From: a bacterium
GTDB taxonomy: Bacteria > UBA8248 > JACPRG01 > G963555815
Direction of reading: 5' to 3'
DNA: 64,000 bases
Assembly: GCA_965261595.1 (NCBI GenBank)
Contig: CBDHDG010000007.1
Location: forward strand, 544,001-608,000
Shown: piece by piece, positions 3,033 through 62,044 of the stretch
Numbering within the stretch: the first letter of the stretch is position 1
Layout of the letters: each line of letters opens with the position of its first letter
Notes under the pieces: generated by a model
The model's database searches: none
What the model was told of the DNA's origin: nothing
Seen by the model: the letters and a program-made list of their open reading frames with translations, nothing else
Translations under genes and position numbers: made by a program

Positions 3033-3061
3033 TTGACAGCCCCGGTAAAGAGGGCTCTAAT
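3033..3061 (+). promoter_or_regulatory. sigma70-like promoter in the mini-IS1380 3' region
   Basis: TTGACA-N17-TCTAAT; same boxes at 46708-46736 (-) and 35159-35187 (+). Confidence 0.6.
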
Positions 3062-26921: not shown

Positions 26922-26963
26922 GGGTTCGTTCTCCTTGAATGTCTGAACACGGATGACTCCCGG

Positions 26964-28034: not shown

Positions 28035-28190
28035 CTTCGCTTCCTCCCTTCTCAGTCGCCCATGAGGCGCACCGGCCACGGAGCGGTCCAACGCCGTCCC
28101 GTGCGATGCGGCCTTTCTTTTCATCAGGGGTGTCGAATTCAACACGGAACCGCCGAAGCGGGCGCAAAGCGCGTCCTTCCGCGCCGGCGC

Positions 28191-30753: not shown

Positions 30754-30806
30754 GCGGTGCACTCCTCCTCAACGCCGGGCCGCTGAGCCCGGGTCCTTGG
30801 CTGGGG

Positions 30807-30836: not shown

Positions 30837-30994
30837 ACACTGTGTTGCGAACCAAAAAAACCCGTCCCCGGAAGGCGTGTTGGCGGATTTCTGGACATCC
30901 ACGCCGTTGCGCGTCACAGAAAGGGATGGGGCGTCCGCACGGCGGGTGAAACACGCCCTTCCTCATGCCGTTCGACAGAAGGCGGAGAAGCTCC

Positions 30995-31855: not shown

Positions 31856-31868
31856 TTTCGGAGGAGCC

Positions 31869-32363
31869 ATGCGGAAAGACATCGAGATCACGGTCAACGG
31901 CGAGGTCCAGGATATCAACATCCCGGTCCACGCCACGCTGCTTCACGTCCTGCGCTACGACCTCGGTCTCACCGGTACCAAAGAGGGCTGCGGCCAGCAC
32001 GAGTGCGGGGCCTGCACGGTCCACATGGACGGCCTGCCCGTCTGCTCGTGCTCGATCCTCGCCGTGGACGCCGACCGAAAGAGCGTGACGACCATCGAGG
32101 GCCTCGTTCAGGACGGCAAGCTTCACCCGCTTCAGGAGACCTTCGTGAAATACGGGGCCATCCAGTGCGGCTACTGCACGCCCGGCCAGATCATGTGCGG
32201 CGTGGCCCTGCTGAACGAAAACCCCAGCCCCACCGACGCCGAAGTCCGCCTGTGGATGTGCGGCAACCTGTGCCGCTGCACCGGATACCAGAAAATCCGA
32301 GAGGCCATCCACGAGGCCGGCAAGACCCTCTCGGGGGGAGGGGGGGGGAGCGAATCGGCATGA
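31869..32363 (+). CDS. Mo-hydroxylase (2Fe-2S)-binding small subunit (CoxS/CutS-like)
   Basis: GTKEGC..ECGACTV, QCGYCTPG, GNLCRCTGY motifs. Confidence 0.95.
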   Translation: MRKDIEITVNGEVQDINIPVHATLLHVLRYDLGLTGTKEGCGQHECGACTVHMDGLPVCSCSILAVDADRKSVTTIEGLVQDGKLHPLQETFVKYGAIQCGYCTPGQIMCGVALLNENPSPTDAEVRLWMCGNLCRCTGYQKIREAIHEAGKTLSGGGGGSESA

Positions 32364-37157: not shown

Positions 37158-37325
37158 AATTGTGTCATTTCTAGGCGCGGACGGGAAATCCAGGCCATCG
37201 GCGATGACGCCCGCTTCTGTAGGTCAATCACCCTATTTTCCGGATCTCAAAAGTAATGACCCATTGATTTTATTGCGATTCCGCCTTTGGGTTTGAATCG
37301 TACTTTTACATTGTTTAACCGCTCC

Positions 37326-38730
37326 TGGACCGCCCCTGGGTTATTGGACACTCGGGTGAGGGTATTCGACCTCATGCGGCCTCCGCAACTTGAGCGAGTT
37401 TTTCCTGCCTTGCCTGGGCCGGCGTTCGGTAGCCGTAGCCCTCGAGAATCCAATGATGGTTGTACAGGTTCTTGAACTCAAGCAGCGCCCACCGCAGTTC
37501 CTCTACGGTGGCGAAAGAGCGCACCCACAGGAGATTCTCCTTCAAGATGCGGATAAACCACTCACAGTAGCCATTTCCCTCGGGCGCCCGCACGAAGCTG
37601 GGCGAACTGGTCATGCCCAGGTAGGCGATCTCCCGCTGAAAGTCATCGGACAGATAGGCGGGGCCGTGGTCGTGACGAACTTTAAGCCCCTCGGCGACGT
37701 CCGCCTCCAAGCCGGCGAAGCGCTCGGCGACCCCCTGCCGGATCGGCTCCAGGGCCTCGAAGCGGTTGCCGCTCTTGGCCGCATGGATCCCCACGCAGTC
37801 CACCGAGCAGTGATCCACCGCCACGAACACCGAGGCCATCCCCTCCTCGGTGGTCACCGTCGTCGTCATGTCCGTGCCCCACATTCGGTCGGGCCGCTCG
37901 GTGCGGATGGTCCCGTTGTGGGCCTTGGGACCTCGGGGTTTGCCCACCCGGTGGGGGGCCTGAAGCCCCGCCTCCCGCATCAGGCGACGCACCCGCTCCT
38001 TGCTGGTGCGGATGCCCGCGAAGCGCAGCCTCGCCCACACCTTGCGGTAGCCCTCGCCATGGAAGGGAGAGTCCTCCAGGACCTGCCGGATGTGGCCGAG
38101 GAGTTCCGCATCGGTGCACGGGCCCACAGGGCCGCGCTTATTGGGCGTGGGGCGTTCATGAACGGGGACCGCCTCTCGCCGCCGTTGCGCGTAGACCGTG
38201 GAGCGCGCCAAGCCCCAAAGGGCGCACACCCGCTTCAGGCCGTAGGCTCTGCCCGTGGAGGTGAAGCGGGCCTGACTCATCGCCTCCACCTCCTGCCGGC
38301 TAAAGGGCGGCCGGCCTCCAGGCGGTCGATCTTCTCCCGCAGGACCTCGCCCTCCATCGTGAGTTCGCCCACCTTGGCCTTGAGCCGGGCGTTCTCCTCG
38401 TCCCGCTCATCCGCCGGGCGGGCTTTGAGCGCCGCCTCGCCCGCGCGAAGGAACGCCTCGCGCCAGGCGGAAAGCCGAGCCGCTGTCGTGCCCAACTCGC
38501 GGCAGAGCGTCTCCAGGCTCTCGCCCCGCAAAAGACGCAGGACCGCCTCCCGCTTGCGCCTGGCAGGAGAACCGACCCCGCTCACTGCGATGCCCTGGGG
38601 CCTTGGCTCCGTTCGCCCTGCGGGCGCCCTCCGCCAAAGCCCCCTCTTGCTTTTGTTCGTTCATCGCGACACCCCTTTCTCCATGAATCATGGATCAATC
38701 GAGTGTCCAACAAAACCCTAGAGCGGGGGA
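37326..38730 (-). mobile_element. IS3-family insertion sequence, copy 3 (orfB 37372-38289; orfA has a +1 C frameshift near 38560)
   Basis: Near-identical to the other copies, 1405 bp; TSD CTCC (37322-37325/38731-38734). Confidence 0.92.
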
Positions 38731-41292: not shown

Positions 41293-42696
41293 TCCCCCGC
41301 TCTAGGGTTTTGTTGGACACTCGATTGATCCATGATTCATGGAGAAAGGGGTGTCGTGATGAACGAACAAAAGCAAGAGGGGGCTTTGGCGGAGGGCGCC
41401 CGTAGGGCGAACGGAGCCAAGGCCCCAGGGCATCGCAGTGAGCGGGGTCGGTTCTCCTGCCAGCGCAAGCGGGAGGCGGTCCTGCGTCTTTTGCGGGGCG
41501 AGAGCCTGGAGACGCTCTGCCGCGAGTTGGGCACGACAGCGGCTCGGCTTTCCGCCTGGCGCGAGGCGTTCCTTCGCGGGGGCGAGGCGGCGCTCAAAGC
41601 CCGCCCGGCGGATGAGCGGGACGAGGAGAACGCCCGGCTAAAGGCCAAGGTGGGCGAACTCACGATGGAGGGCGAGGTCCTGCGGGAGAAGATCGACCGC
41701 CTGGAGGCCGGCCGCCCTTTAGCCGGCAGGAGGTGGAGGCGATGAGTCAGGCCCGCTTCACCTCCACGGGCAGAGCCTACGGCCTGAAGCGGGTGTGCGC
41801 CCTTTGGGGCTTGGCGCGCTCCACGGTCTACGCGCAACGGCGGCGAGAGGCGGTCCCCGTTCATGAACGCCCCACGCCCAATAAGCGCGGCCCTGTGGGC
41901 CCGTGCACCGATGCGGAACTCCTCGGCCACATCCGGCAGGTCCTGGAGGACTCTCCCTTCCATGGCGAGGGCTACCGCAAGGTGTGGGCGAGGCTGCGCT
42001 TCGCGGGCATCCGCACCAGCAAGGAGCGGGTGCGTCGCCTGATGCGGGAGGCGGGGCTTCAGGCCCCCCACCGGGTGGGCAAACCCCGAGGTCCCAAGGC
42101 CCACAACGGGACCATCCGCACCGAGCGGCCCGACCGAATGTGGGGCACGGACATGACGACGACGGTGACCACCGAGGAGGGGATGGCCTCGGTGTTCGTG
42201 GCGGTGGATCACTGCTCGGTGGACTGCGTGGGGATCCATGCGGCCAAGAGCGGCAACCGCTTCGAGGCCCTGGAGCCGATCCGGCAGGGGGTCGCCGAGC
42301 GCTTCGCCGGCTTGGAGGCGGACGTCGCCGAGGGGCTTAAAGTTCGTCACGACCACGGCCCCGCCTATCTGTCCGATGACTTTCAGCGGGAGATCGCCTA
42401 CCTGGGCATGACCAGTTCGCCCAGCTTCGTGCGGGCGCCCGAGGGAAATGGCTACTGTGAGTGGTTTATCCGCATCTTGAAGGAGAATCTCCTGTGGGTG
42501 CGCTCTTTCGCCACCGTAGAGGAACTGCGGTGGGCGCTGCTTGAGTTCAAGAACCTGTACAACCATCATTGGATTCTCGAGGGCTACGGCTACCGAACGC
42601 CGGCCCAGGCAAGGCAGGAAAAACTCGCTCAAGTTGCGGAGGCCGCATGAGGTCGAATACCCTCACCCGAGTGTCCAATAACCCAGGGGCGGTCCA
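41293..42696 (+). mobile_element. IS3-family insertion sequence, copy 4 (orfA 41359-41745, orfB 41733-42650)
   Basis: Near-identical, 1404 bp; TSD ACCC (41289-41292/42697-42700). Confidence 0.92.
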
Positions 42697-44071: not shown

Positions 44072-44963
44072 TCTAATCAGCTTCTGGAGTATTTGTAAGA
44101 AAACTTAACTGACCAGCCCGCGCCGCTTGAGCTCATCGACGGCTTCATCCATCCGGTCGGCCGATTCGGCGTCCAGGGACCATTGGATCAACTCGCGCAT
44201 CCCGTCCTCGAAGCTGACCTTCGGCTCGAACCCCAGCGTCTCGCGCGCCCGCGTGATGTCGGCGAAACAGTGCCGCACGTCCCCTTTTCGGAAAGTCCGG
44301 GTGACCTCAGGGGCGATGCCCGCTTCGAGCAGCTCGCCCAGGGTCTCGGCGATGGCGGCGATGCCCCGGGGATCGCCCGTGCCGATGTTGAAGCTGGAAG
44401 GGCCGTCCAGGTCCCGCTCCAAGGCCAGCATGTTCGCCTGAACCACATCGTGGACGGAAACAAAGTCGCGCGTCTGGAGGCCGTCCTCGTAAACGATAAG
44501 AGGATGTCCGTTCTTCAGGCGGCTCAGGAAAATGGCGGCGACGCTCGTATAGGGGTTGCTCAAGGACTGGCGCGGACCGTAGGCGTTGAAGTAGCGAAGC
44601 CCGACGGCCTGAATGTCGTAAGTCGAACCGAAATTCAGGACGAGGTCCTCCTGGACCCCCTTGGTGATGGCATAGACGGAGTTCGGATGATAGGCCGCCG
44701 TCTCGTCCGTGGGGACCGGGGTCAAAGCGGACCCGCACGCGGGACAGAAGAGCTCCCACTCCAGCCGGGCCATCTGCTCCGAGGTCCGCAGCGGGGGACG
44801 GACCACGCCGTGGGTCTCGCACCGGTAGCACCCCTCGCCGTAGCTGCTCATGGACGCGGCCACGATGAGCTTTTGGACGCGGTGATCTTCGTTGGCCAGA
44901 ATGTCCAGAAGGTTCGCAGTCCCGCCGATATTCACGTCCACGTAATGCTTGATCTCATATTGA

Positions 44964-47267
44964 CCCGCATTTCCCATATGGATGATAATTTTTAACGCCC
45001 CGAAGGCCGTTTTCTCGTGTAAAATCAAGGTGTTGGCCTCTCCCTGCCATCATCTTGCGAGGGGACCCGATGGGTGAAGCGAAAAAGAGGCCGTTGAGGC
45101 TCCAATTCGACGGTCGGCTCAGGCTGGAGTTTCACGGAGCAAAGGTTACGAGTAACGCCGGTTTGCTTGCCTATCGTGAACTGGATGAGGTGTTGGGGCT
45201 GACGAAGGCGGCCGATGGGTTTCTGTCCGATTCACGGACGGGCGGGAACACCCGGCACAGCCTCACCGCTTTGGTGCGCCAGTCGGTCTACAGCCGCCTG
45301 GCAGGATATAAAGACACCAATGATGCCGAGCGGCTCTGTGTCGATCCCGCCATGCGTCAGGTGGTTGGGGGGCGAGCGAAGTATCACACCGCTGCCTCCA
45401 CCAGCCAGATGAGCCGATTCGAGACGCAGACCCTCACCCGGCCCCTTAACCCCTCAAGGCGCTGAGCGGTCTGCCCGGTGTGTTGGTGGATCGTGTCCGC
45501 AAACGCAAGCCGATTCGCAAGCTGATCCTGGACATGGACAGTTCGGTCAGCCCGACCCACGGTGAGCAGGAAGGCTCTTCCTACAACGGCCACTTCGGCT
45601 GCACCTGCTATCACCCACTGTTTTGCTTCAACCAGTTTGGCGATCTGGAGCGGGCGCTGTTGCGCAACGGCAAGGTCCACAGCGCTGATGACTGGTGGTC
45701 TGTATTGGAGCCGGTGGTAGCTCGCTACCGGGATGCGAAGGTCTGTCGGTTTTTTCGAGGCGACGCGGCATTTGCCAAGCCGGAGGTGTACCGATACCTT
45801 GAGGCGGAGGGCTACTCCTATGCGATTCGGCTTCCGGCCAACGCCATCTTGTACAGGGACATCGAATGCCTTCTGACCCGGCCGGTTGGCCGACCGCCCA
45901 AAAGGCCCATTATCTTCTACCACAGCGTCTCCTATCAGGCGGCTAGTTGGGAGAAGCCTCGCCGGGTGGTGGTGGCGGTCGAGTGGCACCAGGGCGAGTT
46001 GTTTCCAAGAGTCAGCTTCATCGTGACCAACCTGCACTGGCGGGAAGAGAACGTCGTGAGGTTCTACAACCAGCGTGGGACGGCGGAGCAGTGGATCAAG
46101 GAGGGCAAGTACGCCCTGAACTGGACGCGCCTGTCCTGCCACGGCTTTGAAGAGAACCAGGTCCGCTTGCAACTATTTGCCTTGGCGTACAACCTGGCAA
46201 ACTTCCTGCGGCGGCTGGCGTTGCCCAGAGCGGTGAAGCACTGGTCGCTGACGACGTTACGCGAGAAGCTGATTAAGATTGGGGCCAAGGTGGTCACCCA
46301 CGCCCGGTACACCACCTTCCAGATGGCCGAGGTGGCCGTGCCGCGTCAACTGTTCAGGGCAATCCTTGAACGAATTCGACGGTTGTGGTTACCGCCTCCC
46401 GTACCAGATACCGGATGACGGAGCAGATGGCCCGGAAGCTTAGTGACGTGGTGGAGACGGGGGATCAGTCTGCGCCGAACTCCCCTGAGTGTGCCGGTAG
46501 AGCTGGGTTTTCAAGGGATTGCGGCTTTAGGACGGCCGTTGCCCCTCGATTGAGCAGAGGGTTCTGCAAAGAGACCCTGAATCTGTAGTAAAATGGGGTA
46601 CTTTGATGACACAGGAGGACCGCAGGATGGCTAAGAGTGGTCATCTGGGAAATCCCGGTTTAAATCAAGACAACTCTTGTATTGACCACCCGTTGCTCTT
46701 TAACTCAATTAGAGCCCTCTTTACCGGGGCTGTCAACACCATTTCGGGCGCCTGAAACCCTGATCGGAGCGGTATCCGCCATTGGAAAACCATGTCAGCG
46801 CCGGCGTGTAAACGGGCTTGACCACCAGGTTTGGAGTCTTCGTCATTTTGCCCTTGTGTGGACTCCGCTTAGGGTCGCTAGACAGGCACCGGGCATCATC
46901 GCTTGATTCTCTCCAAGATAAGGGCAAATGTCTTCCTGGATACACCGACCTCGGCCAACTGGAAGGTGATGTGGCGGGCGTACCGCACGAGCCGGCCGCC
47001 CATTTTGAGGAGCTTAAGCTGAAGGCCGCGTAACGACCAGTGCTTGATCCCTCTCGGCAGGCCAGCAATCCCGCATCCGAAGTCATTCTGGTTCCGTGAA
47101 ACTCAAGCCTCAGCCGACGCTCAAAACGGACCTTCAACGCCCACTTTTTCGCTTCACCCATTGGATTACCCCGCGAGAGGATGGCTCGGGGAGGCTCATG
47201 CATTGATTTTACTCCAGAAAATGTCCTCCGGTCCGACAAAAGTTATGATCCATATGGGATATCTGGG
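44964..47267 (+). mobile_element. Composite IS1380 unit, copy 2 (2304 bp): full IS1380 44964-46658 plus inverted mini-IS1380 46659-47267
   Basis: 5-bp TSD ATTGA (44959-44963/47268-47272) flanks the whole unit; internal IRR CATCTGGGAAATCCCGG at 46642-46658. Confidence 0.92.
45070..46418 (+). pseudogene. IS1380-family transposase with -1 frameshift near 45450
   Basis: ORFs 45070-45465 and 45480-46418 together form one DDE_Tnp_1_4-type protein. Confidence 0.9.
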
Positions 47268-49417: not shown

Positions 49418-49924
49418 TCAACCGGATTCGGGGCTGTCCCGATCCTCGGAACCGAATAAGACCCACATCACAAGGGCGTCTTCTTTGTTATCCGGGTAAT
49501 ACCCCTTGCGGGTCGCGGCGGCGGCGAAACCGAATTTCGAGTAGAGCCCCGTTGCGGCTTCATTGGAGACCCGAACCTCCAGGGTTGCGCTGCAAGCGCC
49601 CTGAAACTTTGCCCGCTTAATGAGAGACAGCAAAAGTTGTTCCCCAACACCGCGACGCCGGTGATCGTTCCGGATGGCGAAGTTGGTGATGTGAGCCTCG
49701 TCTACAATCAACAAATAACAAGCATAGCCCGCCACCGCTCCCGGTTTGTCTTCCGGCTCGGCGACCAGGAGGTGCGAGATTCCCGGAAAATTGAGCTCGC
49801 TCCGGAAGTTTGCAGCGCTCCAGGGAACCGGAAAGGCTTCGACCTCGATGGCCAGAACGGCGTCGAGGTCCGCTTCCCGCATTTCACGTATCCGGACGGG
49901 CATTTTCGGCCTGTTGGATGACAT
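49418..49924 (-). CDS. rimI: Ribosomal protein S18-alanine N-acetyltransferase
   Basis: IE..AFP.PWS, DEAHITN.A, LEVRVSN..A..LY.KFGF, RKGYY..NKEDALVM motifs. Confidence 0.9.
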   Translation of the reverse strand: MSSNRPKMPVRIREMREADLDAVLAIEVEAFPVPWSAANFRSELNFPGISHLLVAEPEDKPGAVAGYACYLLIVDEAHITNFAIRNDHRRRGVGEQLLLSLIKRAKFQGACSATLEVRVSNEAATGLYSKFGFAAAATRKGYYPDNKEDALVMWVLFGSEDRDSPESG

Positions 49925-50124
49925 CGCGGACATTTTTCCGGGTTTCCGGGGTTCGTCGCCCCGGGGCTCGCAAAGGACTCCGGGACCCGCAAAGTTCCAT
50001 TGCTCCGCGACCGACACCCGGATACATTCTATATAGATCATGGTCACGCAATTGCAGTGATCATTGACCCAATGGTATAGTGAAATAGAGATGCCGGTTT
50101 TCCAGGAATTTCCGAGGATTCAGG

Positions 50125-50940
50125 ATGTTTGAAGAGAGTTGGGTTGTCATTCGGGGCGCCGGGGACTTGGCAACGGGCGTGATTCACCGTCTTGTCCGCT
50201 CCGGATTTCCCGTCATCGCGACCGACATTCCTTCTCCCACCGTCATTCGCCGGACCGTGGCCTTTGCCGAGGCCGTTCCCGAAGGCGAATGCACCGTCGA
50301 GGGAATCACGGCCCGCCGGGTGGACGACCTGGAAGAAGCGATGCGCGTCGGCCGGGAGGGGATCGTCTCCGTCCTGGTGGACCCAGGGGCCCAGATCGTG
50401 GAACGGTTGAATCCTTTCGCCGTCGTGGACGCGATCCTGGCCAAGCGGAACATCGGCACCCGCCGGGGAATCGCCGATGTCGTGATCGGCCTGGGGCCGG
50501 GTTTCACCGCGGGCGAAGACGTGGACGCCGTCATCGAGACCAACCGGGGCCACGATCTCGCCCGGGTCATCCTGGAAGGCTCGGCCGAGCCCAACACCGG
50601 CGTGCCGGGCAACGTGGGGGGGAAAAGCGCGGAACGGGTCCTGCGGGCTCCTTGCGCGGGCGTCTTTCAATCCCTCCGGGAGATCGCCGATCCGGTCCGG
50701 TCCGGTGAGACGGTGGCCGAAGTCGAAGGCCAACCGGTCGTGACGGAGATCGACGGGATTCTGCGGGGGCTGCTCCGGGACGGGTTGCCGGTGACCGAAG
50801 GATTCAAAGTGGCCGACGTGGACCCCCGGTGCCGCCGGGAGCACTGTTTCACCATCTCGGATAAGGCCCGGGCGATCGGGGGAGGCGTCCTGGAAGCCCT
50901 GCTCATGCGCCTCTCGATGCAAAATCGCGTCGCCGACTGA
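50125..50940 (+). CDS. yqeB: Selenium-dependent molybdenum hydroxylase system protein, YqeB (EF2563) family
   Basis: IRGAGDLATGV..RL, IRRTVAF, DAILAKRN, GLGPGF, ETNRGH.L, DVDPR, ISDKARAIGGGVLEA motifs. Confidence 0.92.
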   Translation: MFEESWVVIRGAGDLATGVIHRLVRSGFPVIATDIPSPTVIRRTVAFAEAVPEGECTVEGITARRVDDLEEAMRVGREGIVSVLVDPGAQIVERLNPFAVVDAILAKRNIGTRRGIADVVIGLGPGFTAGEDVDAVIETNRGHDLARVILEGSAEPNTGVPGNVGGKSAERVLRAPCAGVFQSLREIADPVRSGETVAEVEGQPVVTEIDGILRGLLRDGLPVTEGFKVADVDPRCRREHCFTISDKARAIGGGVLEALLMRLSMQNRVAD

Positions 50941-50956
50941 TTTTCAGCCCTTCCGA

Positions 50957-51865
50957 ATGACACGCCCAGATCGGGATCACCCAAAACACGCCTTTCGCCT
51001 CGGCTCGATGGAGCTGCCCGTCCGGGAGGACGGCGCGAGCGCCTTCGTCCCCCCAGCCCAGTTCTACATCCCGGCCGACGGCGCGCTGGAAAAGGTCATG
51101 TGGGCGGTGTCCCAAAGCCTCCCCGTCCTCCTCATCGGTGAAACCGGCGTCGGTAAAACCCTCGCCATCCGCCACCTGGCCCACGAGACCAACAACGGTT
51201 TTCGCCGCGTCAACCTGAACGGGATGACGACCGTGGACGAGTTTGTCGGCAAGCTGATGATCAACGATTCCGGCACGTACTGGTCGAACGGGGTCTTGGT
51301 CCAAGCCATGGAGGCCGGTGACTGGCTCCTCATCGACGAGGTCAACGCCTGTCTGCCGGAAATCGCCTTTTGCCTCCATTCGCTGCTGGACGACGACCGG
51401 ATGATCGTCCTGACGGAATATGACGGGCGGATCATCCGGCCCCATCCGGACTTCCGGCTCTTCGCCACCATGAACCCGTCCGAGGAGCGGAAATACGGCG
51501 GGACCAAACCCCTCAACGAGGCCTTCCTGGACCGTTTTCCCATGACCCTGCGGATAACCTACCTCCCGGAGGATGCCGAGGTCGAAGCGGTCCGGGTCCA
51601 GAGCGGCAACCCCGACGAGGACGCGGTGCGGAAGATGGTCCGGTGCGCGGCGGATTTGCGGGCCGCCATCTCCGAGGAAAAGCTCTTCGGGTCGTGCAGC
51701 ACGCGCCGGGTGATCGACTGGGCCCGCATGGCCCGGCGGTTCGGCCCGCTCGAGGCCGCGCGGCACACGCTGATCAGCAAGGCGCCCGCCTTCGACGCAC
51801 GGGTGATCCAGGACGTCGTCGAGAACTACTTCGGCCCGCCGGACGCGCGGGATCAACCCGAGTAG
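50957..51865 (+). CDS. MoxR-class AAA+ ATPase (CbbQ/NorQ/NirQ-like)
   Basis: Walker A GETGVGKT, Walker B LLIDEVN, HPDFRLFATMNP, AFLDRF, STRR. Confidence 0.92.
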   Translation: MTRPDRDHPKHAFRLGSMELPVREDGASAFVPPAQFYIPADGALEKVMWAVSQSLPVLLIGETGVGKTLAIRHLAHETNNGFRRVNLNGMTTVDEFVGKLMINDSGTYWSNGVLVQAMEAGDWLLIDEVNACLPEIAFCLHSLLDDDRMIVLTEYDGRIIRPHPDFRLFATMNPSEERKYGGTKPLNEAFLDRFPMTLRITYLPEDAEVEAVRVQSGNPDEDAVRKMVRCAADLRAAISEEKLFGSCSTRRVIDWARMARRFGPLEAARHTLISKAPAFDARVIQDVVENYFGPPDARDQPE

Positions 51866-51876
51866 GGAGCGAACCG

Positions 51877-53601
51877 GTGGCGGCCGTCCGGCATTCTCAA
51901 CCCCCTCCAAAACCGAAATCGGATGTTTCCTCCGCCGACGCCGACGCGTTCCGCCGGCTCCGGTGGGAGCGTCTCGCGCAAATCGCCTCTCAAGACTTCA
52001 AGGTGAAGCTGGACTTCGGACCCGGGCACGGGACCGACGGGTCACGGGTCAGCATCCAAAAAGAGGCCAACGCCCTCGCCGAGCGGGGAGAGACCCTCCA
52101 CGAATCGGCCCACCTCTTCGCGGGCAGCGCGCGCGGAAGCCGGCGGGCCGCCGGCCTGTCGGCGGGCCGCCCCGCCGCCGAAGCCCTGGCGATCCACCTG
52201 ATCTGGCACGCGCTCGAAGACGCGCGCGCGGAAAACATCTTCCTCGATCGCTACCCCGGCGCGGACGCCTTTCTGGAGGTGCGCGCGGATAACGATTCCC
52301 GAAGAGACGCCGAGCTGGGAGCGCTCCATCTCCTGGTCCGTCTGGCGTGGGGGATGTACCGCGCCGGGAGAGGGAAGGGGGCCGGCGGCCTGGATGAAGA
52401 CACCCGCCTGGCCCTCGGGATCGTCGGCCCCCTGGTGGAGCGGGCGGCCGCCTGTGAAAACCCGGAGGAGGTCGCCGACACCGCACTGGAAATCTTCCGA
52501 CGTTGCGCGTCTTTCTTCGAGTTGTCCGAACAAGCGCTTTCCGCCCGGGGCGAGCCCCCCGCCACCTCCGGCGCCGAGGACGGCGCGGAAGTCCGATTCG
52601 AAGACGGGGCCGCGGAATATTCCGAAGAGGATGAGGTGGATGGGGAGATGCTCCTCGGCATGGCGCCGGAGGAGCTGGCGAACCTGAGCTTCACGGGTAG
52701 TCCCCGGCTGGACGGGGATTCCCGGCCGAAGGAGATCCATCCCGACGCCCTGGCCCCGGACGAGCGGACCATCGTCCTGCCGCCCGGGGGGCGATTGGAC
52801 GAGTACCAGGACATCCTCTCGGAGGCCGGCAGCCAGGTCCGCGTCATGGTCCAGAGGCTCCAGCGGGTGATTCGCGAGCGGCAGCACGTCCGGTACGCCG
52901 GGGCCTACCGATCGGGGAAGCTGAACCTGGCGAAACTCTGGAAGCAGCGGACCGGAGATTACCGGCTGTTCCAACGGAAGGTCGAGCCGGACCACCTGGA
53001 CGTGGCCTTCTCGCTCCTGGTGGATGAGAGCGGCAGCATGAACCGAAAGAAGAAATTCCTCGTGGCCCGCCGGGCGTCCGTCCTCTGCGCCGAGGCCCTG
53101 GACGGAATCTCGGTCCCCTTCGAAATCATCGGATACTCGACCGAGGCCTCCGAGGCCGTGATGGCCCACAACTGCGGCCACGTCCCGGTGTTCCAATATC
53201 GCCACATCCGACACAGCCGTCTCCAGCACCGGCTCTACAAGACGTTCGACGATTCATTCCGGGCCGTGAGGACACGGCTCGTCCACATCGCGCCCCGGTT
53301 CAACAACTGGGACGAAGAGCACTTGGCGTTCGCCGCGCGCCGCATGGCGGGACGGCCGGAAAACGCCAAGGTCATCATCATCATCTCGGACGGCCAACCC
53401 AACGGGAGCGCGCACAAACTGATCGAGGAGGTGGGGGAGCTGGACCGGCGCGGTTACCGAATCATCGCCGTGGGGATCGAAGACGATTACGTCCGGGAGA
53501 TCTATCCGAACCACGTGGTGGTCGAGGACATGGCTCAGCTCGCGGCGGAGCTGATCGCCCTCCTGGAGCGGGAGCTTCTGGGCCGGCGGGGGCGGAGGTG
53601 A
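51877..53601 (+). CDS. VWA domain protein (NorD/CbbO/CobT-like partner of the AAA ATPase)
   Basis: HESAH..LEDARAE N-domain, acidic linker, MIDAS DESGSM, ISDGQP. Confidence 0.85.
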   Translation: MAAVRHSQPPPKPKSDVSSADADAFRRLRWERLAQIASQDFKVKLDFGPGHGTDGSRVSIQKEANALAERGETLHESAHLFAGSARGSRRAAGLSAGRPAAEALAIHLIWHALEDARAENIFLDRYPGADAFLEVRADNDSRRDAELGALHLLVRLAWGMYRAGRGKGAGGLDEDTRLALGIVGPLVERAAACENPEEVADTALEIFRRCASFFELSEQALSARGEPPATSGAEDGAEVRFEDGAAEYSEEDEVDGEMLLGMAPEELANLSFTGSPRLDGDSRPKEIHPDALAPDERTIVLPPGGRLDEYQDILSEAGSQVRVMVQRLQRVIRERQHVRYAGAYRSGKLNLAKLWKQRTGDYRLFQRKVEPDHLDVAFSLLVDESGSMNRKKKFLVARRASVLCAEALDGISVPFEIIGYSTEASEAVMAHNCGHVPVFQYRHIRHSRLQHRLYKTFDDSFRAVRTRLVHIAPRFNNWDEEHLAFAARRMAGRPENAKVIIIISDGQPNGSAHKLIEEVGELDRRGYRIIAVGIEDDYVREIYPNHVVVEDMAQLAAELIALLERELLGRRGRR

Positions 53602-53700
53602 GGCCGGCGGCGATGCATGCCCCGCGGCGGCCGGATGACCGCCCCGCCCCCAGCAATCCGATTGTGAAGCGGGGCCTCAAACGTTACGGAGTGACGCACG

Positions 53701-54825
53701 ATGATCCGGTCTGAAAGCGAGCTTCAAGAAAGCAATACGACACTCATCCTCAGCGAGCGGGACGTTCAAAGCCTCTTCGAGGGGATGACCGAGGCGGAGG
53801 TTGTCGCCGGGGCCACCGATTGGATAGAGCGGGCCTTCATCGAGCAGGCCGGCGGAGACCTCCGGCTTCACCGCCGGGTGCACGTGGATTACCCGGAAGG
53901 CCGGGGTTACGAGGACGGATCGGTCATTCGCATCCTCCCCTGCATCCTCCCCGGCCTGGGCGTCGCCGCCTTCCGGGCCTACCCGGACCACCACGGCGGC
54001 CGGGTGCTCGACCCATCGAGGAAAGCGGAGGACATCGATTACCGGATGGGGTCGGAGCTTCTCGTCGTGTACGACTACGACAATGGGATGAAGCTGGTCG
54101 CCATCATGAGTCATTATCTCCTGATGAACGCCCGGACGGCCGCGCCCACGGCGCTTTCGGTCCGCCATCTGGCCCGGGAGGATTCGCGCGTCTTCGGCTT
54201 CTTCGGCGCCGGCCGGCACGCGAGCGCGCAGATCAAATCCGTCCTGAACGAGCGGCCCGGGATTGAAGAGGTCCGGCTGTGCGGCCGGACGCCCGCCCGG
54301 CGCGACGCCCTGGCCGAGCGGCTTGCCGGGGGGGGGGAGGGGAAGGTCTCCCAGAAGATCGTCCCCGTGGATCGCCCGGAGGACGCGGTGAAGGGGTGCG
54401 ACATCGTCGTCACATGCACAAACGCCGGGAAGCCGGTCTTCGACGGGGAATGGATCGAGCCGGGAACCCACGTGACGCAGGTGGCGCGCGGCGAGATTGA
54501 CGCGACGACCGTCCGGCGCTCCCGGGTCTTCGCCGTCTGGAAAGACCAGATCCTTCACGATATTCCCCCCATGCAGCCGTTTGGAGACATGGTCGCGTCG
54601 GGCGAGCTGAAAGATGAGGACGTCTCCGAGCTCTCCGACGTCATCGCGGGCAAGGACCCCGGCCGCCGAAGCGGGGACGAAATCACCCTCTGCCCCACGC
54701 AGGGCATGGGCCTGTGGGACGCGGCGGTGGGGAAATGGGCCTACGGGCTGGCGGTCGAAAAGGGGGTCGGACAACCGTTCGTTTTCCGCAACGACCTGAC
54801 ATCCGGCCCCGGCGAATCCGTGTGA
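53701..54825 (+). CDS. Ornithine cyclodeaminase/mu-crystallin family protein
   Basis: RTAAPTA, GAGRHA..Q, DIVVTCT, PGTHV, GR....EIT, GMGLWDAA motifs. Confidence 0.9.
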   Translation: MIRSESELQESNTTLILSERDVQSLFEGMTEAEVVAGATDWIERAFIEQAGGDLRLHRRVHVDYPEGRGYEDGSVIRILPCILPGLGVAAFRAYPDHHGGRVLDPSRKAEDIDYRMGSELLVVYDYDNGMKLVAIMSHYLLMNARTAAPTALSVRHLAREDSRVFGFFGAGRHASAQIKSVLNERPGIEEVRLCGRTPARRDALAERLAGGGEGKVSQKIVPVDRPEDAVKGCDIVVTCTNAGKPVFDGEWIEPGTHVTQVARGEIDATTVRRSRVFAVWKDQILHDIPPMQPFGDMVASGELKDEDVSELSDVIAGKDPGRRSGDEITLCPTQGMGLWDAAVGKWAYGLAVEKGVGQPFVFRNDLTSGPGESV

Positions 54826-55480: not shown

Positions 55481-57827
55481 ATGTCCACGGATTCAGTGAC
55501 CGGCGATTCCTCCACCCAAATCATCCGGACGATGTGCCGCAATTGTCACGGCGCGTGCGGGGTCTTTGTAACGGTCAAAGACGGCAAAGCCATCGACATC
55601 AAGGGCGACCCCGATTGTCCGAACAACCTGGGATATCTCTGCACCAAGGGCCGCTACTCGATCTCTTACTCCAACAGTCCCGACCGCATCACCCATCCCA
55701 TGAAACGCGTGGGTCCCCGGGGCTCGGGGGAGTGGGAGCGGGTCTCCTGGGAGGAGGCCTTGGACCTCTTGGAGAAGAAATGCAAGGACGCCATCCGGGA
55801 CTACGGCCCCGAGTACATCGGAAAGGCCTGCGGGACGGGCCGGGAGTGGAACAACTTCGGGAGCCGCTTCTTCAATTCCCTGGGAGCGGTCCTCAACGTG
55901 GGCCGCTCGCCCCTTTGCTACTTCCCCCGCGTGGCCGTCGCCAAGAGCACCCTCGGCGCCAAGATCCCCGTCGCCGACTACTACGGCTGGGGCGGGGAGT
56001 ATCCCAAGTGCGTCATGATGTGGGGAAACGATCCCCTCACCAACGCCGACGGGATGATCAGCAACCGACTGACGCCGACCATAAAGGGCGGGGCCCGGAT
56101 CATCCTCATCGATCCCCTCGAAACCCATTGGGCGAGACGGAACGACTGCTGCTGGCTCCAGATCCGCCCCGTGACGGACGGCGCCCTGGGCCTCGGCATG
56201 TTGAACGTCATCCTGACCGAGGGCCTTTACGACCGCCCCTTCGTCGAGCGCTGGACGAACGCCCCCTTCCTGGTCCGGGAGGACACGGGCGACCTCCTGA
56301 ACGCGGGCGAGGAGAAAGGGGAGGGGGGGGAGCCGAGATATCTCGTTTGGGACGCTGAAACCGGCGGCCCCTGTGCGCCGGATGACTCAAAGCGTCCGGC
56401 GCTTATGGGAACCTACCAGGTGGACGGGGTCTCGTGCGCCCCGCCTGGGACATCCTGCTTGAGCGGGTCCGGGAGTATCCCCCCGAGCGCGTCGCCGAAA
56501 TCTGCTGGGTTCCGGCCGAGAATATTGTCGAGGCCGCGCGCATCTTCGCCACAACCAAGCCGGCCGTCATCCAGTGGGGCAACGCCCTGGACGTCCAGGG
56601 GGTGAACAACTCTCAGACGATGCAGGCGGCCATTCTTCTCATGACCGTGACAGGCACAACCTGGACGTTCCGGGCGGGATGGCCATCTGGGAGCACGGCC
56701 CGTTCGTGGACCCCTTCGGCCCCGAGCACGAGCGGCCGGACCTGCTGCCCGAGAAATCCCGCGCGATGCTGGCCGATTACGGCGCGCGGGAGTTCCCCAT
56801 CCTCGGCATCACCCACGGCTCGCTGGTCAATAACGCCATCGTCGCGGACGAGCTGCCGGTCCAGGTGGTTTCATCATCGGGCACAACTTCCTCCTGACAG
56901 CCGAGGACACCGAGACGTGCCGCCAAGTCATGCACAAGATCCCCTTCTCGGTGACCTTCGACCTGTTCATGACGCCCACGGCCGCGCTGTCCGACCTGTT
57001 CCTGCCGGTGACGACGTGGCTTGAGCGCGACCAGCTCACGGCGCCCTACACCCGCTTCGGCCAGTTCGCGCGCTGCAAGGCGGTCGAGCCGCCCGGCGAG
57101 TGCCGCGACGACGAGGACATCCTCCTGGAGATGGCCCACCGCATGGGTCTCCACGAGGCCTTCCCTTGGAAGACTGTGGAGGAGTATTTCGACTGGCGGC
57201 TGGCCCGAACCCTTCCAGGATCTCAAGCGAGAGGGGCAGTACATCCACCCCCAGACCTACCGCAAACACGAGGGGGACCACTTCCGTAAGGGCGGCGGCT
57301 TCGCGACGCGGACGGGACGGGTCGAGGTGTTCCAGACGACCTTCAAAAAGCACGGCCACGACCCCTTCCCCTTCTACGTCGAGCCGGAAGAGGAGTCGCC
57401 GCACAACGCCGCGCTGTCCGAAGCGTATCCCTTCATCTCGACGACGCGGCGGACCGCCCACTTCTTCCATTCCGGGCACCACCAGGCGCCCGAGCTCCGG
57501 CGGCGCAATCCCGACCCCCTGGTGGAGATGAACCGCAAGGCGGCCGAGGACCTGGGCATCGGCGACGGCGACTGGGTCTGGATCGAAACCCCGAAGGGCC
57601 GCATCCGGCAGAAGGCCAAGCTGCTGGACGGGATCCACCCCCGGGTGATCTGCAACCAGCACGCCTGGTGGTACCCCGAGCGCGAGGGACCCGAGTACGG
57701 ACTCCGGGAGAGCAACCTGAACATGATCACCCGGAACGACCGGGGCCAAGGCTTCGATCCCATCTACGGCGGATCCCAGCTCCGGGGCTTTCTCTGCAAG
57801 GTCTACCGGGCGGAAGAGGCCCCCTGA
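55481..57827 (+). pseudogene. Mo/W-bisPGD oxidoreductase (DMSO reductase family, acetylene-hydratase-like), about 4 frameshifts
   Basis: CRNCHGAC..C 4Fe-4S motif, RITHPMKR, DLFMTPTA..SD..LP, C-terminal molydop-binding domain; frame breaks near 56432, 56657, 56870, 57205. Confidence 0.85.
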
Positions 57828-58109: not shown

Positions 58110-58245
58110 GCCGGCTGAGGGGACGGAATGATTAAGGGCTTTCTTTTTTTCTTTCAGTGAGCCATGCGGGTTCACCCGGACGTTGCGTCCGGCGCGGGGG
58201 CCGGATAAGATACCCGACCCGTCGGATTCACGGAGAAAGATCAAG

Positions 58246-59112
58246 ATGGCGCTTCCTCCCTTCACACTGCACGACCCGGAATCGGCCCTCGACGCCTGCC
58301 GGATGCTCGGCGATTACGGCGACGACGGCGCGGCCATCGCGGGCGGCACGGCTGTGCTGATCCTGATGAAGAGCGGGCTCTACCGGCCGGCCCACCTGGT
58401 GAATCTCAAGGCCCTCGACACGCTCTCCGAAATCCGGTTCGATCCCCGAGCGGGCCTTCACCTGGGCGCGCTGGCGACGCATCGCGCCGTGGAGCGCGAT
58501 CCGGCCGTCCGGGAGCATTACCCTATCCTTTCGAGCACGTACGCCCGCGTGGCCAACGTCCGGGTGAGGAACAGCGCCACGGTCGGCGGCAACCTGGCCC
58601 ACGGCGATTTCCGGATCGATCCCCCGGCCCCCCTCATCGCCCTCGGCGCGAAGATCCACCTGATGGGGACCGGCGGAGAACGCGAGCTTCCCCTGGAGGA
58701 TTTCTTCACCGGCTTCTACGAGACGGCGAAAGCGGAGGGAGAGATCGTGACCGCCGTGACCGTGCCGCCCCCGCCGGCCGGCCTGGCCGGGACGTACCTG
58801 AAATACGTCGGAAACGCCGCGGCCGACTGGCCGACGCTGGGGACGGCGGTGATGCTCCGGACCACGAAGGGGGCGTGCGAAGACCTCCGGGTCGTCTTGA
58901 CCTCCGTGGCGGAAACGCCCGTTAAGGTCGCCGGCCTGGAAGAGCTGGCCTTCGGCCAAGCGTTGACCGAGGACCGGATCGAACAAATCGCCGAGGCCGC
59001 CGCCGCGCAGACCGACCCCATCGAAGACCACCGGGGGTCGGCCTGGTACAAGCGCGAGATGGTGAAGGTCCACGTGAGGCGGGGGATCGAGGCGCTGCTG
59101 GCGTCGAAGTAA
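58246..59112 (+). CDS. Mo-hydroxylase FAD-binding medium subunit
   Basis: IAGGTAV, RVRNSATVGGN, DHRGSAWYKR motifs. Confidence 0.93.
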   Translation: MALPPFTLHDPESALDACRMLGDYGDDGAAIAGGTAVLILMKSGLYRPAHLVNLKALDTLSEIRFDPRAGLHLGALATHRAVERDPAVREHYPILSSTYARVANVRVRNSATVGGNLAHGDFRIDPPAPLIALGAKIHLMGTGGERELPLEDFFTGFYETAKAEGEIVTAVTVPPPPAGLAGTYLKYVGNAAADWPTLGTAVMLRTTKGACEDLRVVLTSVAETPVKVAGLEELAFGQALTEDRIEQIAEAAAAQTDPIEDHRGSAWYKREMVKVHVRRGIEALLASK

Positions 59113-59231
59113 CGCCCTCCTCGGCCGGGCAGGATGCCCGGCCTACCGGTCGGTGGCTAGGGTCTTCAAACAGGTGAGGCGGGCATCTTGCCCGCCATCC
59201 CTTTGGCGACGATTTAGAGGATCCGAAAACG

Positions 59232-61580
59232 ATGGCCCAGGCAATCGTCGGACAATCCATCCCGCGGATCGACGGTCTCCCCAAGGTGACGGGCAACGCG
59301 CGATACATCGCGGACCTCTCCCTTCCGGGCATGCTCCACGCGGCCGTGATGCGGAGCCCGCACCCCCACGCCTTGTTGAAGAGGATCGACGCCGGCGAGG
59401 CCCGAAAAGTCCCCGGCGTGAAAGCCGTCCTCACCGGCCCGGACATCCTGAAGATGGAGGGGATCGACCCCTTCTACGGCCCGGCCTACAAAGACCAGCC
59501 CATCCTGGCCGTCGAGCGCGTCCGTCACGTGGGCGAGGCGGTCGCCGCCGTCGCCGCGGACACCCGCGAGGCGGCGGAGGAGGCCCTTTCGCTGGTCCGG
59601 GTCGAATACGAGCCGATTCCCGCCGTCCACACGGTGTTGGACGCCGTCCGGCCCGACGCCCCCCTCGTCCACGAGAACATCGTGCCGGCCAACACCTTCG
59701 CCGACCTGTCCAACCTGAAGGGCGGAAAGTCCAACATCAACTTTCATTTCAAGCTGCGCAAGGGCGACGCCGAGAAGGCCCTGAAGGAGGCCGCCGTCGT
59801 CTTCGAGGACGATTTCATCTCCCCCCCGGCCTCCCACGCCCACCTGGAGCCCCACGGGGTCCTCGCCCGGTGGGACGCGAACGGCAAGCTCACCCTCTGG
59901 TCGGGAACGCAGAGCCCCTCGCTGGTCCGCATCGACTTGGCGGGGATCTACGGCGTTCCCCTCAACCGGGTCCGGGTCATCGTGCCCTACCTCGGCGGCG
60001 CCTACGGCGGAAAGCTCTACGATAAGCTCGAGCCCATCACGACCCTCCTGGCCAAGGTGACCATGAGACCCGTGCGGTGGATCCTGAACCGGGAAGAGGT
60101 CTTCGTGACCACCTCCAAGCATGGAGCGGTCTGCCGGATGCGAACGGGGGTTTCCACGGAAGGCAGGATCTCCGTCCGGAAGGTCGCCGTGTACTACGAC
60201 ACCGGGGCCTACGCGGAGGTCGGACCCCGCATCGCCTACAAGACCGGGTTCACGGCGGCGGGACCCTACCGGATCCCCAACGTCTGGATCGACTCCTACT
60301 GCGTTTACACCCACAAGACCCCCGCCGGTCCGTTCCGCGGCTTCGGCGTCCCCCAGGTGGCCTTCGCCTACGAGACCCACATGGAGAAGGTGGCCCACCA
60401 CCTGGGACGCGACCCGGTCGAGCTCAGACTGGAGTACGCCTACGAAGAGGGGGACTTCTTCGCCTCGGGAACAAAGCTCCACAGCCTGGGCCACAAGGAT
60501 TCGCTCATAAAATGCGCCGAGGCCATCGGCTGGACGCCCGGCCCCCGAAAACCCCCCTCATCGCTCCCCGCCCGGGGAAAGCGGCGCGGCAAGGGGTGCG
60601 CCCTCGGCCTCAAGTCCGTCCTCACGCCCTCCACGTCCGGGGCGATCCTGGAAATGGGAAGCGACGGAAGCCTGAACGTCCTCACCTCCGCTGTCGAGAT
60701 GGGGCAAGGCTCGGACACGATCTTCTGCCAGATCGCCGCCGAGGAGATGTGCGTGCCGTTCGAGAAGGTGGGCATCGTCGGGCCGGACACCGACATCACC
60801 CCCTACGACACCCTGACCGCGGGGAGCCGGTCCACGTTCCACGTCGGCCGGGCGATCCAACTGGCCGCCACCGACTTGAAGCGGCAGTTCATCGAGATCG
60901 GCGCCGAGGCGCTGGAGGTGAGCGAAGAGCAGATCGAGTTTCACGACGGCGGAGTCCGGGTCGTGGGCATGCCGAAACGCAATCTCACGCAGGGGGATAT
61001 CTTCACCCGGCGGTTCAAGGGCGCGAAGGGAACAACGCTCGTCGGACAGGGGGTCTGCCAGACCTCCGTCGCGCCCACCGACAAGGAAACCGGCCAGTCG
61101 GAGAACATGACGGCGTTCTGGTTCGGCGGGGCCTCCGCCGCGGAGGTCGAGGTGGACTGCGAGACGGGGACGGTTCAGGTGCTGAAGTTCGCCGGGGGCG
61201 CGGACGTGGGGAAGGCCATCCACCCCGCGCACTGCGACCAGCAGGTCGTCGGGGCCGCCATTACGACGCTGGGGTTGACGCTGTTCGAGTCGATGCGCTT
61301 CGAGCAGGGGCAGCTCACCAACGCCTCCTTCCTCGAATACATCCTCCAGGCGTTCGGCGACGTCCCCCGGGACCTCACTTCCCACATCCTGGAAACCCCC
61401 CACCGCGACGGCCCCTACGGCGCGAAGGGCGTCGGCGAGACGGGCACGATGTCGGCCATCCCGGCCGTGACCGCCGCCATTTTCGACGCGACGGGCGTCT
61501 GGATCCACGAAATCCCCATCACGCCGGAAAGCGTCCTGCGGGCGCTGCGCGGACACAACGGAGGCGGCGAGCGTCCATGA
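59232..61580 (+). CDS. Xanthine dehydrogenase family molybdopterin-binding large subunit
   Basis: RSPHPHA, HAHLEPH, GGAYGGK, FRGFG, EMGQG, GAKGVGE motifs. Confidence 0.95.
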   Translation: MAQAIVGQSIPRIDGLPKVTGNARYIADLSLPGMLHAAVMRSPHPHALLKRIDAGEARKVPGVKAVLTGPDILKMEGIDPFYGPAYKDQPILAVERVRHVGEAVAAVAADTREAAEEALSLVRVEYEPIPAVHTVLDAVRPDAPLVHENIVPANTFADLSNLKGGKSNINFHFKLRKGDAEKALKEAAVVFEDDFISPPASHAHLEPHGVLARWDANGKLTLWSGTQSPSLVRIDLAGIYGVPLNRVRVIVPYLGGAYGGKLYDKLEPITTLLAKVTMRPVRWILNREEVFVTTSKHGAVCRMRTGVSTEGRISVRKVAVYYDTGAYAEVGPRIAYKTGFTAAGPYRIPNVWIDSYCVYTHKTPAGPFRGFGVPQVAFAYETHMEKVAHHLGRDPVELRLEYAYEEGDFFASGTKLHSLGHKDSLIKCAEAIGWTPGPRKPPSSLPARGKRRGKGCALGLKSVLTPSTSGAILEMGSDGSLNVLTSAVEMGQGSDTIFCQIAAEEMCVPFEKVGIVGPDTDITPYDTLTAGSRSTFHVGRAIQLAATDLKRQFIEIGAEALEVSEEQIEFHDGGVRVVGMPKRNLTQGDIFTRRFKGAKGTTLVGQGVCQTSVAPTDKETGQSENMTAFWFGGASAAEVEVDCETGTVQVLKFAGGADVGKAIHPAHCDQQVVGAAITTLGLTLFESMRFEQGQLTNASFLEYILQAFGDVPRDLTSHILETPHRDGPYGAKGVGETGTMSAIPAVTAAIFDATGVWIHEIPITPESVLRALRGHNGGGERP

Positions 61581-62044
61581 GAACCATCGAGCTGACGGTC
61601 AACGGCGCGCGCGAGACCCTCCAGGTCGAAGACCAGGCCCTGCTGCTGGACGTCCTGCGGGATAAGCTGTTTCTCACGGGAACGAAAGAGGGCTGCTCTG
61701 TGGGGGCCTGCGGGACGTGCACGGTCCTCATCGACGGGGGGCCCGTGAGCTCCTGCCTCACCCTGGCGGCGCAGCTCCGCCCGGACCAGGAAGTCACGAC
61801 CATCGAGGGCCTGCCCAAAGACGGCAAGCTGGACCCGGTGCAGGAGGCGTTCCTCGAAGAGGCGGCCTTCCAATGCGCCTTCTGCACGCCCGGGATGATC
61901 CTGGCGGTGAAGGCCATGCTCTCGGAAATCCCGAACCCCTCGGAAGAAGAGACTCGCGAGTATCTCCTCGGCAACTACTGCCGCTGCGGCGCGCACAAGG
62001 AAATCCTCAAAGCCGTCCAATCAGCGGCGGGAAAAACCACATAA
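61577..62044 (+). CDS. Mo-hydroxylase (2Fe-2S)-binding small subunit
   Basis: GTKEGC..GACGTCTV, QCAFCTPG, GNYCRCG motifs; ATGA overlap. Confidence 0.95.
   Translation: MRTIELTVNGARETLQVEDQALLLDVLRDKLFLTGTKEGCSVGACGTCTVLIDGGPVSSCLTLAAQLRPDQEVTTIEGLPKDGKLDPVQEAFLEEAAFQCAFCTPGMILAVKAMLSEIPNPSEEETREYLLGNYCRCGAHKEILKAVQSAAGKTT

Follow-up and report, generated by a model that had tools for sequence, protein, structure and literature searches.

A yqeB-linked AAA+/VWA gene pair as a candidate ATP-driven maturation factor for xanthine dehydrogenase-family molybdenum hydroxylases

CobS/CobT and NorQ/NorD are motors for metal insertion (bioRxiv 10.64898/2026.10.09.757910; PMC13036017). CoxD is required for the MgATP-dependent sulfuration of molybdenum in folded CO dehydrogenase (PMC4240915). 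Together with CoxE and the XdhC-like CoxF of Oligotropha carboxidovorans it is needed to place the labile sulfur, and copper, on the molybdenum of the already folded enzyme (PMC4240915, PMC2997495). CbbQ/CbbO is a rubisco activase (PMC4660213). YqeB is the marker of the selenium-dependent molybdenum hydroxylase (SDMH) trait, whose accessory set according to Haft and Self 2008 consists of YqeB (TIGR03309), YqeC (TIGR03172), MocA/YgfJ (TIGR03310) and XdhC (PMC2276186). Here we analyze a 64,000-nt stretch of bacterial DNA, hereafter called the window (GTDB lineage Bacteria; UBA8248; JACPRG01; G963555815; assembly GCA_965261595.1, contig CBDHDG010000007.1, positions 544,001 to 608,000 of the forward strand), in which yqeB is followed by genes for an AAA+ ATPase and a protein with a VWA domain. 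We think it probable, with moderate confidence, that this pair is a distinct MoxR-type motor and adaptor derived from CobS/CobT, acting with the cofactor chaperones YqeB, YqeC and XdhC as an ATP-driven accessory in the maturation or re-activation of molybdenum hydroxylases of the xanthine dehydrogenase (XDH) family. To our knowledge, it is unsolved how these enzymes receive the labile ligand, selenium or sulfur, at their buried molybdenum. For selenium we know only of the marker genes YqeB and YqeC, predicted in 2008, and of no function assigned to them.

The three genes lie on the same strand in the order yqeB, AAA+, VWA and are separated by 16 and 11 nt (Table 1). The preliminary description of the window reported this co-oriented arrangement, the metal ion-dependent adhesion site (MIDAS) of the VWA protein and both gaps, and all are confirmed by the open reading frames (ORFs). 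Its three XDH-family large subunits and mobA were likewise recovered by Pfam and NCBIfam domains. The trio probably forms one operon, a view that we hold jointly with the proposal as a whole and no more firmly. Metatranscriptome contigs from three studies, at least 95% identical to the window, cover parts of yqeB, AAA+ and VWA, and one contig of 818 bases (96.6% identical; window 50196-51013) crosses the yqeB/AAA junction. These data are assembled contigs that cannot prove a single transcript, to which DNA carry-over or relatives may contribute, and their uncovered parts are uninformative. A promoter and terminator scan of 49900-53900 returned no promoter-like and two terminator-like sites, no excess over shuffled sequences.

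The ATPase matches AAA_5 (94.2 bits) and CbbQ_C (30.7 bits), and its catalytic motifs GETGVGKT and LLIDE, which we take to be Walker A and Walker B, are intact. The VWA protein matches CobT_C (74.0 bits) and VWA (34.6 bits). Its MIDAS is complete, with D383, S385, S387, T422 and D505 invariant across 27 aligned family members. The two genes have the order of a MoxR-type pair, in which an AAA_5 ATPase with intact Walker A/B motifs precedes a VWA-domain partner whose MIDAS is full. In the predicted model of the VWA protein (mean predicted local distance difference test score, pLDDT, 77.6), an N-terminal helical domain (19-222) is joined through a disordered linker (223-279) and a long helix to the C-terminal VWA domain. 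The best Foldseek matches of this model are the NorD VWA domain in NorQD complexes (9qhd_G, E 1.6e-8) and next the MIDAS domains of Rea1/MDN1.

YqeB, encoded by a single-copy gene, is a stand-alone TIGR03309 protein that is not fused to an XdhC-like half. With 375.7 bits (cut-off 220), its match to the TIGR03309 model spans positions 1-255 of 256, and it matched no Pfam family. Cys241 is invariant in 24 sequences. The confidently predicted model (pLDDT 88.8, predicted template modeling score 0.86) combines an N-terminal half of Rossmann-like fold with a barrel-sandwich part at the C terminus. A fold search gave no full-length solved match (template modeling (TM) score 0.40 or less), while the C-terminal part locally resembles biotinyl carrier domains (TM to target 0.7-0.8 over about 70 residues). 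A complex prediction of the VWA protein with YqeB scored 0.00 with controls not run, and it is not used as evidence either way.

By sequence, the pair forms its own clade, and CobS/CobT are the nearest among the known relatives. The tree is a quick maximum-likelihood one (LG+G4, support by the Shimodaira-Hasegawa-like approximate likelihood ratio test, SH-aLRT, only) of 26 rows, namely 21 of 58 AAA sequences extracted from the window and related loci, hand-picked against near-duplicates, and 5 references. The references are few and long-branched, with CbbQ, GvpN and a named CoxD not among them, and the CoxD-like ones from this genome are so called by their adjacency to VWA_CoxE genes. In this tree, 20 family ATPases make one clade (SH-aLRT 100, stem 1.39) apart from Phaeobacter NorQ, Sinorhizobium CobS, a CobS-like orphan of Caballeronia and a distant archaeal relative, and 3.04 substitutions per site along one branch separate it from the CoxD-like ATPases, two in number, of this genome. 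Among solved structures, CobS (91.9 bits), NorQ (79.7 bits) and CbbQ (74.8 bits, 5c3c) are almost equally close to the ATPase, while the family VWA profile clearly prefers CobT (113.5 bits) to NorD (18 bits). Neither NCBIfam equivalog cut-off is reached: the ATPase scores 84.5 bits for CobS (TIGR01650, cut-off 558.55) and the VWA protein 50.1 bits for CobT (TIGR01651, cut-off 759.05). CobS_N (PF12556), present in the Sinorhizobium CobS reference, is not among the 19 Pfam families listed at E up to 1.

The likeness to CobS/CobT (9ujv, 9uka; bioRxiv 10.64898/2026.10.09.757910) extends to gene order and size, with about 300 aa for the ATPase and then about 575 aa for a partner that has CobT_C/VWA at its C-terminal end, and probably to the mechanics of ring plus adaptor. 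The CobT N-terminal family PF06213 is precomputed on 2 of 120 relatives among the matches listed. The window pair differs in its scores, its missing CobS_N and its separate clade, and also in its neighbors, which are molybdenum-enzyme genes and not cobalamin genes. NorQ/NorD (PMC13036017; structures 9qh4-9qhg) share the AAA_5 + CbbQ_C ATPase and the long VWA partner, and their linker-remodeling model is the best mechanistic template, but NorD matches the family profile poorly and NorQ falls in a separate clade. NorB and NorD gave no tblastn match at 1e-5 in the genome with Phaeobacter queries. CbbQ belongs to the same CbbQ_C-bearing ATPase group, and re-activation of inhibited or damaged enzyme as a concept fits a repair version of our hypothesis. 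RuBisCO_large has no match genome-wide (genome 96.69% complete). The earlier statement that the window holds no nor or rubisco clients thus stands for the 60 window ORFs scanned and for the genome. The earlier CbbQ/NorQ-like label is right about the CbbQ_C domain and misplaces the nearest known relatives, which are CobS/CobT. The pair had also been left open to being assigned to CobS/CobT or another known client system; it is an orthologue of none of CobS/CobT, NorQ/NorD, CbbQ/CbbO and CoxD/CoxE.

CoxD/CoxE with CoxF is the functional precedent, since there too AAA+, VWA and XdhC-like genes accompany an XDH-family enzyme. A cassette of AAA, VWA and XdhC with YqeB and YqeC follows the same logic, a likeness in function and not in membership. 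CoxD/CoxE lie on another branch of the MoxR group; the window VWA protein scores 22.3 bits for VWA_CoxE (PF05762), below the cut-off of 26.4, and the window cassette has no sign of copper chemistry. This genome has two classical CoxD/CoxE-like pairs elsewhere (Table 1). One directly follows FAD and 2Fe-2S subunit genes, and the other is 3.7 kb upstream of an XDH-family large subunit. As both sit beside XDH genes at other sites, the window pair is a third kind and not the CoxD/CoxE orthologue. Two further groups of matches were set aside. The best plasmid match, an 'AAA ATPase / CobT' pair of a Caballeronia plasmid (35.8% identity), has unrelated neighbors and was kept as a tree reference only. 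The distant VWA matches L073-L087 (archaeon, Firmicutes) are 25-35% identical over the VWA domain only, were treated as other families, and have no yqeB, yqeC, xdhC or XDH neighbors at 1e-8.

The linkage with yqeB is conserved. A scan with the VWA alignment was examined for its 80 best loci, 65 of which are family members (at least 34% identity over most of the protein). The AAA gene adjoins the VWA gene in all 57 family loci with at least 950 nt upstream. Forty of these 65 members have yqeB and/or yqeC next to the pair; all of the forty belong to the window's phylum or to unnamed relatives, and 32 of the 36 yqeB/yqeC loci with at least 2100 nt downstream have the order yqeB-AAA-VWA-yqeC-xdhC. 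YqeC of this cassette scores 167 bits (cut-off 73) and the XdhC protein 339 bits for XdhC_rel_AOR, slightly below the cut-off of 350. The four exceptions (L008-L011) are the closest relatives of the window, and there the cassette ends at VWA as it does in the window. The yqeC and xdhC genes of this genome sit side by side at C7:1192065-1194086, roughly 600 kb from yqeB-AAA-VWA, and the xdhC product is 49% identical to Nitrospinaceae XdhC. From this displacement and the truncated cassettes of L008-L011 it follows that the cassette broke once and the pair remained with yqeB. In a sample of 51 genomes of the phylum, VWA is found in 48 and YqeB in 49 (47 over the cut-off). Of the 48 genomes that have the two genes, 43 carry them next to each other on a single contig, as read from two tables, and the remaining five are fragmented assemblies of 230 to 740 contigs with the genes on different contigs. 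The neighborhood, whose conservation had been proposed as a check, is thus kept across the phylum, and the constancy of AAA-VWA (57/57) and of YqeB with VWA (43/48) puts the arrangement beyond chance. The flanks beyond the cassette vary by clade, with a rimI-like gene and the ornithine cyclodeaminase gene in the window and acyl-CoA dehydrogenase and pdxA in Nitrospinaceae. One genus, g3, of the window's own family (2 genomes, 2.1 Mb, 95% complete) is without YqeB, VWA and any MoCoBD_1 match, while three sister genomes hold 55, 67 and 71 MoCoBD_1 matches.

A second context is found in Chloroflexota. At 21 loci, genes for a FAD subunit, a 2Fe-2S subunit and the two parts of a split large subunit precede AAA-VWA, with 0-2 genes in between. 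All 19 non-yqeB loci for which at least 2300 nt upstream are available have these genes. Among solved structures, the split subunits are closest to nicotinate dehydrogenase of Eubacterium barkeri (3HRD), which has the same L/M split, with scores of 230 and 224 bits against 161 and 172 bits for the next entry. We take 3HRD to be the paradigm structure of selenium on molybdenum. The Chloroflexota enzyme has a best match of only 45% identity in the window's phylum, and therefore no client shared between the phyla can be named. In pair-bearing Chloroflexota, yqeB itself was followed by yqeC in 11 of the 12 loci fetched. At the one annotated locus, yqeB is preceded by a large subunit that scores 586 bits for PucD and 463 bits for the selenium-dependent XDH model, and a fused 466-aa YqeC (154 bits) + MocA-like (145 bits) protein directly follows it (L123 5858-7258). 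As yqeB and the pair occupy separate loci in this phylum, the five accessory genes combine differently by lineage. ATPase identity is 61-69% between the phyla and 63-70% between families within the window's phylum, and the tree leaves three family groups unresolved. This fits transfer of a two-gene module that came to lie, again, beside XDH-family genes. The linkage to yqeB and yqeC-xdhC, the 19 of 19 loci in Chloroflexota and the co-absence in g3 together tie the pair to XDH-family enzymes.

The selenium genes on which the earlier inference depended are encoded in this genome. SelD scores 329.9 bits and has one in-frame TGA, YqeC scores 146.9 bits (cut-off 73.05) and MocA 190 bits (cut-off 186.45). 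The published SDMH set is thus represented by YqeB, YqeC and MocA over cut-off, in addition to selD, and across most of the phylum the pair is flanked by yqeB on one side and yqeC-xdhC on the other; the set of PMC2276186 has no ATPase or VWA protein. Candidate clients are abundant. The XDH-family operon downstream of the trio is the nearest candidate client. Genome-wide there are about 70 XDH-family large subunits (70 and 73 matches with the two halves) against 22 FAD subunits, 28 Fe-S subunits and a single XdhC match. Large subunits are greatly expanded in the window's clade, with 73 in G010 and 67, 55 and 71 in G329, G330 and G331, whereas Nitrospinaceae have 7 and the phylum elsewhere 10 and 16. 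Some matches score identically at two places and possibly belong to duplicated regions (contamination estimate 5.57%).

The ATP-driven maturation reading draws on CoxD as its functional precedent and on the NorQD and CobST motors as its mechanical template. On these analogies we infer the oligomeric state, the client, the step catalyzed and the selenium specificity as follows. The ATPase would form a hexameric ring, on which the VWA protein would dock through its VWA domain. The MIDAS site and/or the N-terminal helical domain would hold a folded apo-hydroxylase or a cofactor-loaded chaperone. ATP hydrolysis would then tug the linker and transiently open the site of the buried molybdenum, allowing the labile terminal chalcogen (selenium via SelD/YqeB/YqeC, or sulfur) or the cofactor itself to be installed, or re-installed after loss. 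Selenium specificity is plausible; linkage to yqeB and the nicotinate-dehydrogenase-like client favor the selenium version. In its boldest form, which we put forward tentatively and consider doubtful, the pair and YqeB would be a chelatase-like selenium insertion machine. A motor derived from cobalt chelatase would drive the installation of Mo=Se, or its re-installation after oxidative loss, and YqeB (or XdhC) would take the substrate-holding role of CobN.

Several observations weigh against the proposed maturation role, and they bear differently on the other explanations. The closest relatives of the pair by both solved structures and NCBIfam are CobS and CobT, the window AAA gene is the only CobS-like match of the genome, and the genome does encode CobN (1331 bits, C5:232610-236167) in a cobalamin cluster with a TonB-dependent receptor, CobO, CobQ, cobalamin-5-phosphate synthase and DBI_PRT. 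No CobS/CobT or ChlI/ChlD-type partner was found near CobN, with ChlI/ChlD not searched for genome-wide. The pair could therefore be the CobS/CobT motor of an aerobic-type cobaltochelatase serving this CobN. We regard this as very improbable. Both proteins score far under the equivalog cut-offs, the ATPase has no CobS_N and falls outside the Sinorhizobium CobS lineage in the tree, and the neighbors of the pair are yqeB, yqeC, xdhC or XDH subunits, never cobalamin genes. CobN is also missing from all 24 other pair-bearing genomes, some of which are single-contig chromosomes, and a cobaltochelatase role is therefore rejected for the family. Conservation within the phylum may in part be inheritance. 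All 48 pair-positive genomes belong to one class, kin are not independent, and among the 80 best loci there is no family member outside the window's phylum and Chloroflexota. The independent evidence effectively comes down to two contexts, a co-loss and the splitting of one operon. With no verdict from the complex prediction, it could be argued that the adjacency is meaningless and that the pair serves an unrelated client in an order kept by descent. We consider this improbable, as the pair is again beside XDH-family genes in Chloroflexota after the split of the phyla, was lost jointly with yqeB and all XDH-family enzymes in g3, and is kept between flanks that differ from clade to clade.

An explanation that deserves more weight, although we still think it unlikely, is that the pair is an assembly factor specific for one or a few XDH-family enzymes, concerned with cofactor insertion, sulfuration or subunit assembly and with no role in selenium. 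The yqeB adjacency would then reflect clustering of general XDH maturation genes, in keeping with the presence of the general chaperone XdhC in the same cassette. In a sample of 301 genomes of one Chloroflexota class (Anaerolineae), the pair is found in two, and an orthologue of the M subunit (at least 81% identity) is found only in the same two, so that the pair travels with one enzyme subtype; 23 other genomes have M-subunit homologues of 47-62% identity and no pair. YqeB is over the cut-off in 171 of the 301 genomes, and 169 of these 171 are without the pair; E. coli, taken as a control, also has YqeB. The pair is dispensable for most YqeB-bearing organisms. Moreover, in pair-bearing Chloroflexota yqeB is at another locus, directly after a different XDH-family large subunit, in 12 of 12 loci fetched. 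Against a selenium-free role, the break of the cassette in the window's clade left the pair with yqeB and not with xdhC, 3HRD, the selenium paradigm, is the enzyme that the Chloroflexota one most resembles, and YqeB occurs in 21 of 24 pair-bearing Chloroflexota. The last figure compares with 169 of 299 in the background (odds ratio 5.4, Fisher p 0.002, with genomes that are kin and not independent), and since YqeB is common in the class the enrichment is only moderate. With about 70 large subunits, the client in this genome cannot be named. The earlier inference, that the pair may remodel apo-hydroxylases for insertion of selenium or cofactor, is partly supported, in its link to molybdenum hydroxylases, with the pair behind a nicotinate-dehydrogenase-like enzyme in a second phylum. 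A core role in the selenium trait does not hold, given the pair in 2 and YqeB in 171 of the 301 genomes.

Table 1. Genes of the yqeB-AAA-VWA locus and related features in the window and elsewhere in the genome (C4 and C6 are other contigs of the assembly)
Feature	Position	Strand	Remarks
yqeB	50125-50940	+	271 aa, ATG start
AAA+ ATPase gene	50957-51865	+	302 aa, ATG start
VWA gene	51877-53601	+	574 aa, GTG start, GGGAG 8 nt upstream
Ornithine cyclodeaminase/mu-crystallin family gene	53701-54825	+	OCD_Mu_crystall 139.7 bits; starts 99 nt past VWA, co-oriented
XDH-family operon, nearest candidate client	58183-62044	+	FAD 58183-59112, large 59232-61580, 2Fe-2S ~61580-62044; Pfam domains
Second XDH-family operon	30965-34687	+	FAD 30965-31855, 2Fe-2S 31869-32363, large ~32360-34687; Pfam/NCBIfam
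Third XDH-family large subunit	8741-11029	+	no adjacent FAD or Fe-S genes; Pfam/NCBIfam
MobA-like gene	15322-15936		
CoxD/CoxE-like pairs of this genome	C4:157277-161049 and C6:614599-617335		VWA_CoxE 204 and 133 bits

The ornithine cyclodeaminase gene follows VWA only in loci L008, L010 and L011 and takes the place of yqeC-xdhC in the window's own clade; it is probably a neighbor and not part of the system. Beyond it, a molybdopterin oxidoreductase of the bis-molybdopterin guanine dinucleotide type is spread over three ORFs on the forward strand (55481-56605, 56434-57024 and 57021-57827), either frameshifted or affected by assembly errors. The 1238-aa ORF at 25689-29405 (+) was rejected as spurious, as it has no family match and is antisense to three real genes, for a luciferase-like monooxygenase, an amidinotransferase/arginine deiminase-like protein and an amidohydrolase. 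The last has a tandem paralogue at 29545-30762 with 78-79% DNA identity. The window also holds four 100%-identical IS3-type copies (HTH_21 + rve transposase), whose 431-aa ORFs are antisense to IS3, and a 1543-nt DDE_Tnp_1_4 element that occurs twice, in inverted orientation and with 100% identity; the repeat element sites are at 1094-6213, 44963-47267, 37325-38559 and 41293-42696. Including flanks of 300 and 469 nt, the left DDE copy is an inverted repeat of the right one, except that it has an IS3 copy inserted at each end. The segment of roughly 39 kb between the DDE copies may be able to invert, or the arrangement may stem from an assembly problem.

We found no publication on the linkage of an AAA+/VWA pair with yqeB in a search that left out most subscription journals and supplements. 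PMC2276186 (Haft and Self 2008) and PMC5322559 (Lin et al. 2015) have no AAA, MoxR, von Willebrand or ATPase wording, and a 2024 C. difficile paper (PMC11448449) has no AAA, MoxR, VWA, von Willebrand, CoxD or chaperone wording. Where YqeB is named with AAA in the passages seen, AAA belongs to strain names or CoxD and YqeB are handled separately; titles or passages on XdhC with MoxR hold nothing on this pair, and no paper linking CobT, xanthine dehydrogenase, AAA and maturation was found.

Locked to yqeB in one phylum and to a nicotinate-dehydrogenase-like enzyme elsewhere, the pair is a concrete, testable candidate for energy-driven maturation or repair of XDH-family enzymes, and it points to a third class of clients for motors of the CobS/NorQ/CbbQ group. 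If the selenium insertion machine is real, it would be the first machine named for this cofactor and would supply its first step that requires energy. It might then also explain the occurrence of the pair in the window's phylum, whose Nitrospinaceae are aerobic nitrite oxidizers, and in some Chloroflexota, the pair not having been found in anaerobes with the trait. In the window's clade each genome has 55 to 73 XDH large subunits but one yqeB-AAA-VWA and one yqeC-xdhC, so that one apparatus must serve many enzymes.

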